Counted from the first letter of the stretch, positions 839-33,335 are shown. The stretch is 36,263 nucleotides of DNA from a virus (IMGVR_UViG_3300045988_159823:1-36263), one strand, 5' to 3'. Numbers and translations: made by a program. Notes: generated by a model not told the origin, from the sequence alone.

Positions 839-1247
839 GCCATTCAATATCTGGAGCACTGGAGGTATCCACCAGTTCCAGTGCGTCCAGGTAATCCAGC
901 CACAAATTATATAGTGCCAGTTCCTCGTCTTTCAGACGACCAATAGCGGCTTTACCGGGCCATTGTTTACTGTTCATGTATTCGTTGGCCTGATTAAGCA
1001 ATAATTGCCTTTCTGATTCTGCCTGTTGAATAAGTTCTTCATGCGATGGTGGAGGTATTAGTGCCCATGTGGGTAATCCATTTTTTCCTGCAACACGAAT
1101 TTTGTCATATGGGGGCGTATTGATTGCAAATTCATTATAAACATCATCACTGACAGCCAGAGCATCATCTGGCCATGAATTTGCATTAATGTAATCATCC
1201 TTAAGCGCAGGATTCACAAAAATGTTTAATGATGGACTATAAAACAT
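810..1247 (-). CDS. tail fibre assembly protein (Tfa), expressed cassette
   Basis: 145 aa; C-terminal motif ...LWLDYLDALELVDTSSAPDIEWP typical of Tfa chaperones; directly downstream of the fibre gene. Confidence 0.75.
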   Translation of the reverse strand: MFYSPSLNIFVNPALKDDYINANSWPDDALAVSDDVYNEFAINTPPYDKIRVAGKNGLPTWALIPPPSHEELIQQAESERQLLLNQANEYMNSKQWPGKAAIGRLKDEELALYNLWLDYLDALELVDTSSAPDIEWPTPPVTQAS

Positions 1248-7468: not shown

Positions 7469-7611
7469 TGGGACCCCCTTTTGATTTCTTGTTTGACACT
7501 TGCAGTTGCCAGACCGCAAGGTGTTTTAACAAATCAAAAGGGGTTTTAATAACTGGCTCAAAGCTGAAAGCTTTCCGGACCCCCCAGCCTAGCTGGGGGT
7601 TTTCTGTGCAC

Positions 7612-8279: not shown

Positions 8280-10112
8280 CTACCAAAATCGGGTATAGCC
8301 AACATCGTGATTTATATCAATGCCACTGGAACGTGTTTCCGTAACCCGCATACCTGGTGGCATATTCATAAATGAAACCTTGATCTCGCCATCAACTTTT
8401 GGCGCGATAGCTTTGTTAATCATGAAGGGATTCGGGCCTGTGGCATCGGAGGCGTTGTTTGACTGAGCCGGATCTACCGCCGGATAAGGTGTGTATCCCC
8501 GCGCCGGTATTCCCGTCCCATAAGCATCATAAGCACCCGCGCCCCACTGCGCAGAGTTAATGGCATCGACCGTGTCACCGGAACTGTCGGTAAACCATTC
8601 AATAATCGGCTTCAGCTTATCCCACATATCCTGAAACCACTTAACAACCGGTCCCCAGTTATTGATCACCATCCCCAGCGGCGACCAGGCAAAAACCTTC
8701 TTAAGAAGTTCCCAGCCAGTCTCAAAATAAGGACCAATGGTTTCCCAGAGTTTCTTAAAATAAGGTCCGACAACATCCCAGTTAGTGATAATTAATCCCG
8801 CAGCCAGGGCTATCGCCGTCGCAATCATGCCAATCGGCGTCATCGACATGATCCTGCTGACAATACTGATGGCACTGCCCACGCCCATCAATCCCAGTTT
8901 CAGAATCGCAAGACCGGCAGCAAGCCCGACGACGCCGCGAATAACCCGGGGATTTTCATCCGCAAACTTAGTGAATTTTTCCCCCAACTCCCCCAGCCAT
9001 TGCGTGATATTTTTAGCGTCACCAGAAAATGCGCCGCCAATAGCTGCAAGACCGTTAGTTGCGGTCCCCGTCATTGCCTCCCACAGGTTGGACAGCGTAC
9101 CAAGCTGTGCCTGAACACGTTTATTCAGGCTGGCCTGTTTATTCATCTTCTGCTGGATCTGATCGTAACCATCCTTTCCTTTATCGATCAGAGCATTGAC
9201 CACCTGAAGGGTTTCGGCATCATCACCAAATATTGCCTTAAGTACACCTGTTCGCTTAACGTCGGTCAGTTTTCGCAGCTTTGCCAGTTGCTTAAACATG
9301 TTATCAAGACCGCCAAAACTCCCTTTGCCGTCAGTAAAATCGAGCTGCACTCCGAGTTTCTGGCGGGCCATGACTTTATTGACGTCCCTGATTTTCTTAA
9401 CGCTTAATCCGGACTGGATAACTTTTCGCAGGGCATTACCTGCCGACTCCCCGTTCATCCCCATCTGATCCATCATGACGCTGATGGGGGCAAGGCTCTG
9501 TGCAGCCTGAAGACCGTCCTTGTTCACCATCTTCAGAACAGAACTGGTTTTAGTGAAGAAGGACAACATGTTGGTATCGTCAACGCCCAGATAAAACGCC
9601 TTCTGGATAGTGTCGAACAGCCCCATCATGTCTTCTGACGCCGTTCCGGTAGCATCCTGCATCTTTGCAGCAAACTCAGCAGCCGCTTCCGGTGTTTTTT
9701 TCAGTTGTACCGCAAGATAAGCTGTCGCTTTACCCACACCGCCAAGAATGTTTTCTGCCGGGATCCCCTGACGCACCAGCATCTGCATCATGTTCTGGAA
9801 ATCAGCCGTTGTACCGGGTAGCTGGTTACCCAGGCCAATAGCCAGTTTATTGATGTCCTGAAAGCTCTTTCCAACCTCGCCATTCGCATCCATCATGGCG
9901 ACTTTCAGCCCGGTGGCGGCGTTTTCCTGATCGGCATAAGATTTCAGGGAAAGCGTCAGACCCGCTGCCAGTCCGCCACCAAGCGCCAGCCCACCCTGTG
10001 ACGCTTCTTCCGCCTGGCGTTTAAATCCCCGGATTTTCTTTTGCATTTTCGACAGCGCGGGAGAAAGCCTGTCGACACCGGTGATCAACGCCTTAAGCTC
10101 AAATTCAGCCAT
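8280..10112 (-). CDS. tail tape measure protein
   Basis: 610 aa; Ala/Gly-rich helical N-terminal half and hydrophobic segments; lies between the chaperone and baseplate genes. Confidence 0.8.
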   Translation of the reverse strand: MAEFELKALITGVDRLSPALSKMQKKIRGFKRQAEEASQGGLALGGGLAAGLTLSLKSYADQENAATGLKVAMMDANGEVGKSFQDINKLAIGLGNQLPGTTADFQNMMQMLVRQGIPAENILGGVGKATAYLAVQLKKTPEAAAEFAAKMQDATGTASEDMMGLFDTIQKAFYLGVDDTNMLSFFTKTSSVLKMVNKDGLQAAQSLAPISVMMDQMGMNGESAGNALRKVIQSGLSVKKIRDVNKVMARQKLGVQLDFTDGKGSFGGLDNMFKQLAKLRKLTDVKRTGVLKAIFGDDAETLQVVNALIDKGKDGYDQIQQKMNKQASLNKRVQAQLGTLSNLWEAMTGTATNGLAAIGGAFSGDAKNITQWLGELGEKFTKFADENPRVIRGVVGLAAGLAILKLGLMGVGSAISIVSRIMSMTPIGMIATAIALAAGLIITNWDVVGPYFKKLWETIGPYFETGWELLKKVFAWSPLGMVINNWGPVVKWFQDMWDKLKPIIEWFTDSSGDTVDAINSAQWGAGAYDAYGTGIPARGYTPYPAVDPAQSNNASDATGPNPFMINKAIAPKVDGEIKVSFMNMPPGMRVTETRSSGIDINHDVGYTRFW

Positions 10113-29145: not shown

Positions 29146-29170
29146 AATATGTACCTCCGGTGTACATATT
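29146..29170. promoter_or_regulatory. operator-like palindrome AATATGTAC-N7-GTACATATT overlapping the cro ribosome-binding site
   Basis: Perfect 9-bp inverted repeat in the cI / cro divergent region. Confidence 0.45.
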
Positions 29171-29197
29171 ACATGATTGAAATGAACCTTCAAGATA

Positions 29198-29218
29198 CTT
29201 GTACCTTAACGGTACAAG
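29198..29218. promoter_or_regulatory. operator-like palindrome CTTGTACC-TTAAC-GGTACAAG
   Basis: Perfect 8-bp inverted repeat sharing the GTACC core, 15 bp upstream of the repressor start. Confidence 0.45.
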
Positions 29219-29233
29219 GGTTTTAATTTCGTT

Positions 29234-29908
29234 ATGAAAACAATCCATGACATCCGGCGGTCTAACGCCAGAAAACTGAGAGATGGTGTTGGCGGGAATT
29301 CTTCCTTTGCCACTATGATTGATCGCGAGCCAACCCAGACCAGCAGGTTTATGGGAGATGGTGCTACTAAAAATATCGGTGACAGCATGGCACGACACAT
29401 CGAAAAATGTTTCGACCTGCCTGTCGGATGGCTCGATCAAGAACACCAGACAACGAACATCACAAAAAAACCTGATGTTTCAATCACTAATAAACAAATC
29501 ACATTAGTCCCTGTCATATCATGGGTACAGGCCGGAGCATGGAAAGAAGTTGGATATTCTGAGGTTGATTTGAGCACAGCAGAAACGTATCCCTGCCCTG
29601 TCCCCTGTGGGGAAATGACTTATATCTTGCGGGTGATAGGTGATTCAATGATTGATGAGTACCGCCCGGGAGACATGATTTTTGTCGATCCTGAAGTACC
29701 TGCCTGCCACGGTGACGACGTTATTGCATTGATGCACGATACAGGTGAAACCACCTTCAAAAGGTTGATAGAAGATGGGACACAGCGTTATCTCAAAGCG
29801 TTAAACCCAAACTGGCCTGAGCCTTACATTAAGATCAACGGTAATTGCTCTATAATTGGTACAGTGATTTTCTCAGGAAAACCAAGAAGATACAAAATCA
29901 AAGCCTAA
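29234..29908 (+). CDS. CI-type prophage repressor (HTH plus S24 LexA-like peptidase domain)
   Basis: C-terminal S24 motifs GDSM and ...DGTQRYLKAL...; N-terminal DNA-binding region; divergent from cro. Confidence 0.85.
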   Translation: MKTIHDIRRSNARKLRDGVGGNSSFATMIDREPTQTSRFMGDGATKNIGDSMARHIEKCFDLPVGWLDQEHQTTNITKKPDVSITNKQITLVPVISWVQAGAWKEVGYSEVDLSTAETYPCPVPCGEMTYILRVIGDSMIDEYRPGDMIFVDPEVPACHGDDVIALMHDTGETTFKRLIEDGTQRYLKALNPNWPEPYIKINGNCSIIGTVIFSGKPRRYKIKA

Positions 29909-29920
29909 TCAATGTTTATG

Positions 29921-29943
29921 AACCTGCTTCGGCAGGTTTTTTT
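29921..29943 (+). terminator. rho-independent terminator after the repressor gene
   Basis: AACCTGC-TTCG-GCAGGTT followed by TTTTTTT, 13 bp after the stop. Confidence 0.6.
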
Positions 29944-30250
29944 ATACTTGGCAATGTACCTTTGAGATACATAATGTACCCAAGAGAAACAACAAACAGG
30001 CAGGACGTCCACGAAGTAACCCCCTGGAGCATATGAAGTCCAGGCTGATTCGTTAGCAACAAAAAAGCGCCCTACCGGACGCTTCGCTCTTTAAAAATCA
30101 GTAACCCTCACTTTGGGCCTGGATCTGGTGGCCTGGGATGAGGTGGAATATGAAAAGGCTCTATTGGTCGACTCATTATCCAATCCTATTATGTCTCATT
30201 TCTTCGGTTTCGGTGGTTTCGGCTTCGGAGGTACATGTCCGTGAACTGGA

Positions 30251-30691
30251 TTATGCTTGTTGGTCATCATTAATATCCGTTAGTTCATTCTCTAGAGGTA
30301 GATCTCCCGCACACCAAGCAATAAATTTTTCTTTGGTTGTTAGATCGTACTTAGTTGGAACACCAGCAAAAATGCAGGCCCGAATGAAAGCCGCTCGTTC
30401 AAGTGATTTCCATGGATTACTATCGGTATCTTGGATTTTTAAATACCTAGCTTGCAACTGATCTTCAGAAAGAGTATCAGACTCAATCAGCAGTCTTTTG
30501 TAATGCCTCGCTTGTTCTTTAGACATCCCAGCCTCCTGGCCGAACTGATAGACCAACTGAAGAACCGAAAGTACGGCAACAAACAAACCGAAAATAAATA
30601 AATTACTGTACGGGGCGAAAACTGAAAAACCGAGAACGATTAACATCAACGTTATTAATTTATCAATACGAGTTAACAACGTGTAATTCAT
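30251..30691 (-). CDS. AT-rich cargo gene: small inner-membrane protein (two TM helices plus cytoplasmic domain), unknown function
   Basis: Hydrophobic LITLMLIVLGFSVFAPY and LFIFGLFVAVLSVLQLVY; start at internal Met preceded by GGAG; AT-rich island 30040..30850 downstream of cI. Confidence 0.55.
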   Translation of the reverse strand: MNYTLLTRIDKLITLMLIVLGFSVFAPYSNLFIFGLFVAVLSVLQLVYQFGQEAGMSKEQARHYKRLLIESDTLSEDQLQARYLKIQDTDSNPWKSLERAAFIRACIFAGVPTKYDLTTKEKFIAWCAGDLPLENELTDINDDQQA

Positions 30692-31386
30692 CTTCTCCAA
30701 TACATAAGAGTAGTGAATATAAAATTTATAATCGTCTCTGGTCATATTAGTCTCAGTTTTCCTTGGGTGGTTTTGGAGGAACTGGAGGCTTTTGTCTTAA
30801 CGGCACATGCCTCTCCTCATACTTATCTACACATCGTTCCATATAAATCCTTATCGTTGTTGGGGAGTGTTACATAATAACCAAATCCTTGTTGTTGGGG
30901 AATAACTAGGTCCACCTCGCCTGATGTGGCTAAAAGCAGGCACATAACAGCTAAGTATTTTCAACCAGAGAGAATCCTTAGCGTTGTGGTGAATGCGGCT
31001 CAGCGCACGCGGGTAAAGGTTGAGGCTGACAGTCGACCTTCTGTGGATACCCACCCGCCTGGTGTGCAACCTTCGCCAGGCACCGGGAGGCACCCGGCAC
31101 CACAACTTTATGCTGTGTGTAGTCTTGGCGGTACCAGCTTGTACCCTTGCTTCCGGCTGGTACCGTCCTTTTTACAAAACAGAGAAGAGCATCACCGGAC
31201 GACGGGCTCATAACCCAATCCATCCGGGCGGCTGCCACCGCAGGTGTTCTTCTCTGTTTTGTGGAGAAACTAACCGCCCCTACGGGGGCATTTATGGAAA
31301 TGTAATTGACTCAATAATCGCCGGACGGTGAGGGCTTCCTTTTACCAGAATTCAGCGTGGTGCAGCACATATACGTGGAGAACAAA

Positions 31387-31923
31387 ATGTCATTTATTAA
31401 AACTTTTTCTGGGAAGCATTTTTATTATGACAAGATAAATAAAGACGACATCGTTATTAACGATATCGCGGTTTCCCTTTCAAATATCTGCCGCTTTGCA
31501 GGACACCTTTCACACTTCTATAGCGTCGCCCAACATGCGGTGCTTTGCAGCATGCTGGTACCGCAGGAATTTGCTTTTGAAGCATTAATGCATGATGCAA
31601 CAGAAGCGTATTGCCAGGACATCCCCGCACCACTGAAACGCCTTCTTCCTGACTATAAACGGATGGAAGAAAAAATAGACGCCGTAATCCGTGAGAAATA
31701 CGGGTTACCTCAGGCTATGAGCACGCCCGTGAAATATGCCGATCTCATCATGCTGGCAACCGAACGCCGCGATCTCGGGCTTGATGATGGCTCTTTCTGG
31801 CCAGTATTGGAAGGTATCCCGGCAACAGAGATGTTCGAAGTTATTCCTCTGGCTCCTGGCCATGCCTACGGGCTGTTTATGGAGCGTTTTAAAGAGCTGC
31901 ATAAGATACGTAAGCAATCCTGA
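31387..31923 (+). CDS. HD-domain phosphohydrolase (YfdR-like)
   Basis: H...HD...E motif region FEALMHDATEAYCQDIPAPLK; ATG preceded by GGAG; the track ORF starts at an upstream GTG. Confidence 0.7.
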   Translation: MSFIKTFSGKHFYYDKINKDDIVINDIAVSLSNICRFAGHLSHFYSVAQHAVLCSMLVPQEFAFEALMHDATEAYCQDIPAPLKRLLPDYKRMEEKIDAVIREKYGLPQAMSTPVKYADLIMLATERRDLGLDDGSFWPVLEGIPATEMFEVIPLAPGHAYGLFMERFKELHKIRKQS

Positions 31924-31978
31924 CAGCGAAATTAACTAGTGAAATAGTTTTGTAGCAAAAGAAATGAGGTTATCAAAA

Positions 31979-32224
31979 ATGCTTCAAATGCTGACACTTG
32001 AGGAATGGGCTGCGGAAAAATTTAGGAGTAATCCTCCAAGTGTGTCCACATTACGTCGTTATGCTAAGCAGAATTTATTTTGTCCACCGGCAATGAAACA
32101 AGGTCGACTATGGCGAGTGCGTGAGGATGCAGAGTTAGTTGGGGAGTTAGTTACTCCAGTAATAAAGAAAAGTGATTCTATTATTCTACAAAGGATTTTA
32201 GGTAATGGCAGCCAGACCACGTAA
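31979..32224 (+). CDS. xis: excisionase (lambda Xis-like)
   Basis: LTLEEWAAEKF ... STLRRYAKQNLFCPPAMKQGRLWRVRED parallels lambda Xis; overlaps the int start; exact start ambiguous (31964, 31979 or 31988). Confidence 0.7.
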   Translation: MLQMLTLEEWAAEKFRSNPPSVSTLRRYAKQNLFCPPAMKQGRLWRVREDAELVGELVTPVIKKSDSIILQRILGNGSQTT

Positions 32225-33335
32225 AAATAATGTTTCAGTCCCGAACTTGTATCCGCTTTATAGCAGAAAAGTAAATAAAGTCTATTGGCGATATAAACAT
32301 CCAGTGACCGGGAAGTTTCATTCTTTAGGCACAAACGAAGCTGAAGCCATTGCTATTGCCACTGAGGCAAATTCACGCCTGGCTGAGCAAAGAACCCGGC
32401 AGATTCTGGCTATCAGTGACAGGATCGCAACCAGCAAAGGAAAAGCAATCACAACGTCAACCTGGTTAGATCGCTATCAAGCAATCCAGGATGACAGACT
32501 GGAAAGTGGCGATATAAAGCTCAACACCTATAAACAGAAAGCCAAACCAGTATCCTTGCTCAGGGAACGAGCAGGAATGAAATTAATTTCATCAGTTGAT
32601 GCAAGGGATATAGCACAATTGCTTGACGAGTATATCACTGCCGGGCAACCGAGGATGGCGCAAGTAGTCCGCTCCGTTCTAATTGATGTATTCAAGGAGG
32701 CACAACACTATGGGGAAGTCCCTCCGGGCTATAATCCTGCACTGGCAACCAAACAACCCAGAAGAAAAATTACCCGACAACGGTTAAATCTTGAAGAGTG
32801 GCAAAAAATCTTTGATATTGCAGATGCCAGTCATCGTTATATGGGGAATGCCATGCTGTTAGCACTGGTTACCGGCCAACGGTTAGGTGATATCTCACGT
32901 ATGAAATTTAGCGATATTTGGGATGATCATCTTCACGTCATCCAGGAAAAAACCGGGAGCAAAATCGCCATCCCGCTTTCTCTGCGCCTCAATGCGATTA
33001 ACTGGAGTTTGCGCGATGTAGTAGCCCGTTGCCGTGACTATGCTGTCAGCCCATACCTTGTACATTTTTTTCGTACTACTTCACAGGCTGAACGCGGCGC
33101 ACAGGTTAAAGCCAATACCTTGACTATGAATTTCAGTAAAGCAAGAGATTTAGCAGGAATTGATTGGGGGAAAGGTTCACCTGCCACATTCCATGAACAA
33201 CGGTCTTTATCTGAACGTCTGTACAAAGAACAGGGGATCGATACTAGAAAGCTACTGGGCCATAAAACCCAGCAGCAAACAGATCGCTACCATGATGACC
33301 GAGGGAAAGATTGGAGTAAAATAGCTATAATTTGA
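32205..33335 (+). CDS. int: tyrosine integrase, lambda Int family
   Basis: Collinear with lambda Int including ...TFHEQRSLSERLYKEQ...LLGHKTQQQTDRYHDDRGKDWSKI (catalytic R-H-R-Y region). Confidence 0.9.
   Translation: MAARPRKNNVSVPNLYPLYSRKVNKVYWRYKHPVTGKFHSLGTNEAEAIAIATEANSRLAEQRTRQILAISDRIATSKGKAITTSTWLDRYQAIQDDRLESGDIKLNTYKQKAKPVSLLRERAGMKLISSVDARDIAQLLDEYITAGQPRMAQVVRSVLIDVFKEAQHYGEVPPGYNPALATKQPRRKITRQRLNLEEWQKIFDIADASHRYMGNAMLLALVTGQRLGDISRMKFSDIWDDHLHVIQEKTGSKIAIPLSLRLNAINWSLRDVVARCRDYAVSPYLVHFFRTTSQAERGAQVKANTLTMNFSKARDLAGIDWGKGSPATFHEQRSLSERLYKEQGIDTRKLLGHKTQQQTDRYHDDRGKDWSKIAII

Follow-up and report, generated by a model that had tools for sequence, protein, structure and literature searches.

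We analysed a viral DNA stretch of 36,263 nucleotides (IMGVR_UViG_3300045988_159823:1-36263; the whole of it is called the window below), which was found to be a lambdoid prophage of E. coli of the e14/SfV/SfII/ST64B type. The subject of this report is the interval 30746..31386 directly in front of the HD-xis-int genes, in which an earlier note on the same DNA had described several hairpins, proposing that the interval might be the early-left operator and promoter plus a long structured leader or small RNA (sRNA). We found that the interval is a conserved structured non-coding RNA of the plus strand. Comparison with SfII, K-12 e14, ST64B, an Stx2c phage and a prophage of E. coli strain 52148 revealed a longer conserved RNA of about 380 nt (30912..31290), of which the hairpins form the 3' part. 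This RNA consists of an upstream block, then a multi-branch domain similar to the sRNA family STnc100, hairpin 1 (HP1) followed by five U residues (U5), the 99-nt hairpin 2 (HP2) and the small hairpin 3 (HP3). The genes, open reading frames (ORFs) and RNA parts at the locus are as follows.

29234..29908, plus strand: cI repressor gene.
30251..30745, minus strand: ORF of 164 codons without a Pfam match (the "membrane cargo gene" of the earlier note), between cI and the hairpin region.
30912..30943, plus strand: upstream block common to the window, SfII and e14, with a small hairpin (CCAC 30912-15/GTGG 30926-29) followed by AAAAGCAGGCAC.
30950..30982, plus strand: hairpin P0, GCTAAGTATTTTC/GAGAATCCTTAGC (inverted repeat I2), just 5' of the multi-branch domain.
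30983..31106, plus strand: Domain 1, multi-branch and STnc100-like, with the closing helix GTTGTGGTG (30983-91)/CACCACAAC (31098-106) (inverted repeat I6).
31020..31331, plus strand: ymfH-like ORF of 103 codons with a TTG start, overlapping Domain 1, HP1, HP2 and HP3; its K-12 e14 equivalent is L002 3576..3887.
31107..31126, plus strand: U/G-rich, single-stranded linker, TTTATGCTGTGTGTAGTCTT, which differs between Domain 1 classes.
31127..31173, plus strand: HP1, a 13-pair hairpin (31127..31167; inverted repeat I3) with a loop of 15 nt, then C and UUUUU (31169-31173).
31169..31267, plus strand: HP2, a 99-nt hairpin whose 25-pair outer stem (31169-31193/31243-31267) takes in the U5 tract.
31276..31289, plus strand: HP3, a small G+C-rich hairpin (GCCCC-TACG-GGGGC) without a U tract, at the junction with the segment upstream of the HD gene.
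31290..31386, plus strand: untranslated stretch 5' of the HD gene, located after yfdP-yfdQ in other phages.
31387..31923, plus strand: HD-domain (YfdR-like) gene, with a Pfam YfbR-like HD match and the ribosome-binding site GGAGAA.
31964..32224, plus strand: xis.
32205..33335, plus strand: int.

All three hairpins described in the earlier note were recovered, and two of them proved to be parts of longer structures. In particular, the 10-bp stem at 31129..31165, in which CGGTACCAGC (31129-31138) pairs with GCTGGTACCG (31156-31165) at 10 of 10 positions, extends to 13 pairs ahead of the TTTTT run. The perfect 13-bp inverted repeat, which was said to enclose further pairing and does so, is the core of 25-nt repeat arms (31174-31198 and 31238-31262) with 84% complementarity. 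The GCCCC/GGGGC hairpin at 31276..31289 was present as described. Inside HP2, the RNA forms a three-way junction (31195-31241), which carries the conserved loop CUCAUAACCC. The segment 31125..31300 folded with a predicted free energy of -86.2 kcal/mol, compared with a shuffle mean of -53.4 kcal/mol (z = -7.7). Folded alone, HP1, HP2 and HP3 gave -23.0, -51.0 and -12.0 kcal/mol (z = -5.1, -8.3 and -2.9, respectively), and the fold of Domain 1 had a z of -3.1. HP1 has the features of an intrinsic terminator, a G+C-rich stem and then a U tract on the transcribed strand; the terminator scan, which has a loop limit of 8 nt, missed it solely because of its longer loop.

The folding and covariance analysis across related prophages, which the earlier note had named among the checks on its proposal, was performed on 30 distinct variants; partner columns slid by 1-3 positions and 500 shuffles served as controls. 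As evident from the results, 93.4% of the cells were paired in the proposed structure. Compensatory changes were present in 13 pairs, compared with 3-7 pairs with slid partner columns, and the covariation score of 0.140 (at most 0.063 when slid) was reached by none of the 500 shuffles. Six stem pairs of HP1 carried compensatory changes and U5 was invariant in all 30 variants; the stem was rebuilt from other sequence in the ST64B-like variants (UA to CG, AU to GC and CG to UA) and in the L114-like variants. The outer stem of HP2 was 99.3% paired, with 18 of its 25 pairs never varying and one pair seen as GC, AU and CG, and the interior helices showed modest covariation. HP3 existed in four sequence versions, with compensatory changes in four of its five pairs. 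Many of the stem pairs are G-U, which become A-C mismatches on the opposite strand, so that the pairing fits the plus strand only.

We also observed conservation of the architecture upstream of HP1. The conservation boundary of the upstream block lies at position 167 of the 641-bp query (30746..31386). Hairpin P0 was kept with altered sequence in ST64B and in the class B variants. Domain 1 occurred in at least four interchangeable classes of 58, 115, 124 and 135 nt, seen in the window (30983..31106) and at the loci L114, L135, L005 and L053; the interiors differed and the closing helix was the same, GUUGUGGU(G)AAU...CACCACAAC. The 5' strand of this helix is entered as GUUGUGGUG, with CACCACAAC as its partner, in our tabulated anatomy of the element. 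The class of Domain 1 was independent of immunity type, as the window and the Stx2c phage have the same operators and different classes.

The 641-bp query showed 100% identity to strain L65 in BLAST searches and matched 2,798 of 5,426 complete E. coli genomes; in many of these the match was confined to the 163-bp HP1-HP3 module. Copies of the element are also carried by phages of Klebsiella, Cronobacter and Hafnia. This module (31125..31287) was matched by itself in Stx2c phages with 94-96% identity. Genomes with a BLAST match to the module alone still carried the upstream domain, in differing classes, and because the architecture of that domain is the same across classes, the module is merely the conserved part of a longer RNA. 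Of 136 module loci, 114 had an upstream cI-like gene on the same strand; among the remainder, 17 had too little flank to tell. The first downstream gene, starting within 300 nt, was YfdP/Sb37-like at 98 of these loci, an HD gene at 12 and xis at nine. The conserved RNA sits between cI with the early-left promoter (PL) and the first early-left gene, in fixed orientation. In most loci, 10-30 nt separated the end of the module from the first ribosome-binding site; the spacing to the first start codon varied from about 20 nt (yfdP) and about 45 nt (xisE) to about 100 nt (HD, in the window). A split ribosome-binding site, with GGAG at 31264 bridged by HP3 to the start codon, was considered and rejected, since the variants do not share the downstream start codon. 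Additionally, BLAST matched 31276..31386 to the yfdQ-HD intergenic region of SfIV (L142 25843..25953) and of an Stx2c phage; because this segment follows yfdQ elsewhere, the present prophage has lost yfdP-yfdQ, with the deletion junction within HP3.

The region is annotated as "ymfH" in K-12 and as "hypothetical protein" in other genomes, and we weighed the possibility that it encodes a small protein, a homologue of YmfH. The annotation of the ORF in K-12 and in many RefSeq genomes speaks for a protein, as does the phenotype of a K-12 ymfH clone, which was reported to trigger the retron-Sen2 toxin RcaT (bioRxiv 10.1101/2020.06.22.160242). The nucleotide substitutions argue otherwise: they were spread evenly over the three codon positions (18/20/19 for e14, 27/34/32 for ST64B and 35/36/30 for L114), and the homologues contained frameshifting indels, including indels of 1, 4 and 20 nt. 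The ORF thus showed neither a kept frame nor a concentration of substitutions at third positions, and the conserved protein-coding gene in related phages that would have spoken against the earlier note was not what the comparison revealed. The composition is rich in Arg, Cys, Pro and Gly, the start codon is TTG, and the ORF is missing from the class B variants, where the NCBI annotation pipeline PGAP left the region unannotated. The conservation tracks the RNA pairing. We therefore regard a protein product as very improbable and K-12 ymfH as most likely an annotation artefact over this RNA; the statement of the earlier note that the interval has no convincing ORF holds for its conserved part. 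Because the ymfH ORF is without a coding signature, the structured RNA may be the active agent of the retron trigger. In the YmfT iModulon, K-12 ymfH has been described as co-regulated with xisE and intE.

The e14 "ymfH" locus is orthologous to the element in the window, with 89.7% identity over 30912..31279 and the same order of cI-like gene, leader, xis and int. The two differ in the HP1 loop and the HP2 interior, and the K-12 leader adjoins xisE instead of an HD gene and is annotated as a protein gene. RNA 3' ends in MG1655 were taken from Term-seq data (Adams et al. 2021, PMC7815308, Supplementary file 1), with the register of the sequence strings checked against sgrS. Three 3' ends are recorded on the ymfH-xisE-intE strand (PMC7815308). 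The end at 1201195(-), with 34,193 reads (...CTGGTACCGCCCTTTTT), corresponds to the last U after HP1 (window 31173), and the end at 1201257(-), with 29,484 reads (...CACCACAACTTTA), lies 4 nt past Domain 1 (window 31110). The most abundant end, 1201423(-), with 109,099 and 285,136 reads (...GTGGTGAAAAGACAGGCAC and ...GACAGGCAC), corresponds to window 30943, just 5' of P0; this end and 1201257 were both classed as not Rho-dependent (PMC7815308). HP1 with U5 therefore not only has the form of an intrinsic terminator but marks a real RNA 3' end in the K-12 orthologue. The 3' edge of the upstream block is the counterpart of the very abundant K-12 end and is probably a processing site.

Data on Hfq were also available for the orthologue. 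In Hfq RIL-seq (sequencing of ligated, interacting RNAs), K-12 "ymfH" was found in 81 and 117 chimeric fragments with 3-4 partners (Bar et al. 2021, PMC8175672). It was mostly second in the chimera (0.67-0.75), and its sRNA probability ranked beside that of DicF (PMC8175672). The supplements on Hfq CLASH (in which hybrids are sequenced after cross-linking and ligation) did not mention ymfH. As for the discrete transcript with a terminator that is typical of an Hfq-dependent sRNA, HP1 and U5 are conserved and covarying, and a 3' end at the last U was measured in the orthologue. The linker 31107..31126 is a candidate Hfq-binding or seed region.

The Rfam family STnc100 (RF02076) matched 30953..31176 (+) with 43.9 bits (E = 4.6e-8) over model positions 1-206, and Rfam aligned HP1 to the STnc100 terminator stem. 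The corresponding scores of relatives were 39.5 for SfII and 35.1 for ST64B. Like STnc100, the element in the window has a multi-branch domain with a GGUG...CACC closing helix and GAAU after its 5' strand, a terminal hairpin CCGGGAGGCACCCGG just before the 3' strand, and then an intrinsic terminator with its U tract, all in register; both are carried by lambdoid prophages. In contrast, the internal arms differ, and the element in the window belongs to an early-left leader rather than to the late region downstream of stx2, where the true STnc100 of the Stx2c phage was found with 149.5 bits. The sRNA part is a divergent relative of this known family. HP2 and HP3 were covered by no Rfam family, and because the true STnc100 of the Stx2c phage has no HP2-like sequel, they do not belong to the STnc100 family. 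They are a conserved, previously undescribed element; we found no description of the element in the literature on ymfH, on early-region RNA of SfV and SfIV, or on HK639.

We compared the element with other phage RNAs. STnc100 and PasD1/PasD2 of enteropathogenic E. coli are treated in published work as related prophage sRNAs, and Hfq dependence and Hfq RIL-seq evidence have been reported for the Pas sRNAs, PasD included. PasD1 and PasD2 are prophage sRNAs of about 172 nt that are Hfq-dependent and reported structural relatives of STnc100; unlike the element in the window, they are located near Q and lpxR in the late region. Identity with PasA-D was rejected, as the four published probe sequences were absent from the window and related loci with 4 mismatches allowed. 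A weak Rfam match to DicF was present at 31114..31168 (+) (19.4 bits, E = 0.17, gathering score 48), where the 5' arm of HP1, UUGGCGGUACCAG, resembles UUGGCGGUAUCAG of DicF. DicF, from the Qin prophage, is an Hfq sRNA cut from an early operon of a defective lambdoid prophage. Lambda PreS (LPR1) is an Hfq-dependent sRNA encoded in the lambda early-left operon. The likeness to PreS and DicF is one of position and biogenesis, and homology with them was not shown. A tRNA- or tmRNA-like nature of Domain 1 was considered and dropped, as ARAGORN found no tRNA or tmRNA in the window.

Two sets of other RNA matches were seen in these phages. The window carries at 7478..7601 (-), in the tail-gene region, a full-length match to the Hfq-binding sRNA STnc490 (RF01405, 142 bits, E = 3.8e-29). 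Matches to the C4 antisense RNA and isrK (60-80 bits) were found in the rightward early region of ST64B and the Stx2c phage (L004 and L006 at about 909..1102 (-); L141 at 9494..9682); neither was found in the window at the gathering threshold. The minus strand of the window carries cro, a CII-family gene, replication genes and the Q antiterminator, and an N-type protein was not detected among the window genes by Pfam-based annotation.

From these results we propose, with a probability of about 0.6, that HP1 has two roles, as the 3' terminator of an Hfq-binding sRNA and as a barrier before HD-xis-int, and that HP2 and HP3 form the 5' untranslated region (UTR) of the read-through mRNA. The part of the earlier note that pointed to a structured leader or sRNA ahead of HD-xis-int is borne out by the strand-specific, covarying structure, its fixed position, and the 3' ends and Hfq chimeras of K-12. 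The conserved RNA heads the early-left operon in a prophage of the e14/SfV/ST64B type, which carries Q and CII, with no N detected. HP1 and U5 would terminate an Hfq-binding sRNA of about 170-230 nt (about 230 nt if it ends at 31173, about 167 nt if at 31110), whose 5' end would probably be cut from a longer transcript near 30943/30944. Processing from a longer transcript is suggested by the negative promoter scan and by the abundant 3' end upstream, which is consistent with cleavage. The sequence CTGATG-16-CATAAC (30921..30948) was examined as an sRNA promoter and rejected; it was weak by eye, and the abundant K-12 3' end within it speaks for processing rather than initiation. Since HP1 stands directly before HD-xis-int, it may also block run-in to the excision and integration genes and thus shield them from transcription arriving from upstream. 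In transcripts of polymerases that pass HP1, the U tract and the next 20 nt would pair with 31243..31267 to give HP2, and HP3 and the first ribosome-binding site would follow; the U tail UUUUUACA pairs with UGUGGAGA at the HP2 base, and all of these positions are invariant. HP2 and HP3 may then serve as a processing or stability element of the operon 5' UTR. RNase III hairpins are known in phage early transcripts (the lambda N leader and sib), and HP2 resembles them in being a near-perfect duplex, longer than 20 bp, that lies in an untranslated stretch of the PL transcript near regulatable genes. The 25-pair stem would be long enough for RNase III, which is the candidate enzyme, and HP3 could cap the processed mRNA.

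Several points weigh against this proposal. The STnc100 score of the window is below the gathering score of 47, the match is not in the gathering-threshold scan of the window, and the e14 copy had no STnc100 match at E < 0.01; moreover, the HP2-like sequel is lacking after the true STnc100 of the Stx2c phage. All experimental evidence was obtained on the K-12 orthologue (about 90% identity), none on this prophage. A 3' end associated with a hairpin can stem from exonuclease trimming as well as from termination. The promoter scan found no free-standing sRNA promoter on the plus strand of 30746-31130. RNase III cleavage of HP2 is a supposition of the model. Additionally, the near-invariant HP2 stem suggests a sequence-specific partner, which the model does not name, and the model gives no account of how PL transcripts pass HP1.

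The other readings of the locus depend in part on where PL lies and on what its transcript contains. The promoter/terminator scan and operator pattern search gave the following features.

29150-29216: OR operators, by operator pattern match.
29920..29939: cI terminator, just 5' of PL.
29948..29975, plus strand: early-left promoter PL, TTGGCA-16-CATAAT, from the promoter/terminator scan.
29955-29971 and 29975-29991: two early-left operators (OL), matching the operator pattern with 1 and 2 mismatches.
29991..30057, plus strand: PL-proximal RNA-like element (PPE), 67 nt, which begins some 16 nt past the -10 hexamer and opens the PL transcript.

In addition, a strong terminator-like hairpin of 9 pairs with a T run was observed on the minus strand of the window at 30064..30085, between PL and the minus-strand ORF 30251..30745. 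Because this hairpin and the ORF intervene, the PL transcript must cross the ORF and its terminator antisense before it reaches the conserved RNA.

The suggestion of the earlier note that the GTACC-bearing hairpin is an early-left operator and promoter bound by CI can draw on GGTACC/TGTACC occurring three times in 31130..31164, since the operators of this phage have the form TGTACC-N5-GGTACA. The motifs are indeed present (GGTACC at 31130 and at 31159, TGTACC at 31140), but what they represent is the two arms of HP1, and neither an operator-like site with up to 3 mismatches (pattern search) nor a promoter-like site (promoter scan) was found in 31100..31300. PL and OL (29948..29991) lie directly 3' of the cI terminator, about 1.1 kb upstream of the hairpins. 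The window contains nine GGTACC sites against 4.7 expected, an excess that is not significant. We also found the hairpin in phages with very different operators of the TTGCAT...CGCAA type (SfII and strain 52148); as it stands beside unrelated operators, the motif is not tied to immunity, and we give an operator at this place hardly any weight. Equally little credence attaches to the idea that the inverted repeats act as DNA, in a miniature transposable element or as a recombination or protein-binding site. The sharp homology edges of the 163-bp module at 31125 and 31287, with differing flanks, and the recombination junction at HP3 would suit such an element. However, as DNA or on the opposite strand its many G-U pairs would turn into A-C mismatches, the sequence changes preserve RNA pairing, the orientation is fixed relative to the operon, and the constant architecture upstream makes the module part of a longer RNA; no target-site duplication was visible in the aligned flanks at the module edges, although no separate search for one was made. 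Independent action of HP2, as a riboswitch-like sensor or a protein-binding operator that controls translation or stability of the first early-left gene, is unlikely, if less so than the operator and DNA readings. The stem and loops of HP2 are nearly invariant across phages with wholly different flanks, conservation of sequence inside a duplex points to sequence-specific recognition, and the end of the module shortly before the first ribosome-binding site would be apt for such control. Against this, HP2 has no Rfam match and no nameable ligand or protein partner, its interior helices covary only modestly, and it lies at no constant distance from the first start codon.

A somewhat better case, which we still consider improbable, can be made for the whole element as a cis-acting leader that alters RNA polymerase or the nascent transcript, much as HK022 put does, to bring about RNA-based processive antitermination or conditional attenuation, with HP1 as a regulated terminator and the sRNA as a by-product. 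This phage has no detected N-type protein, yet its early-left operon opens with 0.3-1.2 kb of structured untranslated RNA at a fixed position and orientation behind PL, and in HK022 RNA alone suffices. PPE is a second conserved, covarying RNA-like element at the start of the same transcript: related prophages carry it downstream of five or more distinct promoter/operator (immunity) types, covariation is seen in the inner stem (UA/GC/CG), and its covariance model (R1) detected a single copy in the window. We found no description of PPE in the literature. The element and HK022 putL/putR are alike as structured leader RNAs in early operons of an N-less lambdoid phage. However, put is about 70 nt long with two stems immediately after PL, whereas the element in the window lies 1.1 kb from PL, and it contains a terminator, whereas put suppresses termination. 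A BLAST comparison of HK022 with the PL-leader segment 29941..30100 gave only chance 9-10-mers, the 641-bp query had no HK022 match among the matches listed, and putL and putR, read from the HK022 sequence, were not matched by the PPE covariance model. Identity with a put-type antiterminator was rejected on this lack of BLAST and covariance-model similarity and on the wrong position. Furthermore, at least four interchangeable Domain 1 classes fit poorly with one conserved polymerase contact surface, STnc100 as a close relative of Domain 1 sits in a Q-antiterminated late region where the function is unnecessary, and the RNA of uninduced K-12 has its 3' end at HP1 and interacts with Hfq in the manner of an sRNA. 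PPE is a candidate cis-acting modifier of PL transcription, with no detectable relation to HK022 put. A broader idea, which we offer tentatively and which is rather improbable, is that PPE, the interchangeable STnc100-like domain and HP1-HP3 constitute an RNA-only control unit of the early-left operon in N-less lambdoid phages. Such a unit would release the sRNA and block xis and int in the lysogen; once the prophage is induced, an RNA-modified polymerase or processing at HP2 would override it.

The proposed sRNA, with its barrier and read-through leader, puts an STnc100-type sRNA together with a strong terminator directly before the excision and integration genes of a very common prophage group, followed by HP2, a highly conserved and uncharacterised RNA element. 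If this is true, ymfH and hundreds of prophage "hypothetical proteins" would be reclassified as non-coding RNA, and the triggering of the retron toxin by the ymfH clone may be an RNA effect. The proposal offers a testable account of how N-less phages keep xis and int silent in lysogens. If the RNA-only control unit is also true, it would be a new and widespread mechanism of prophage excision control, present in about half of E. coli genomes.

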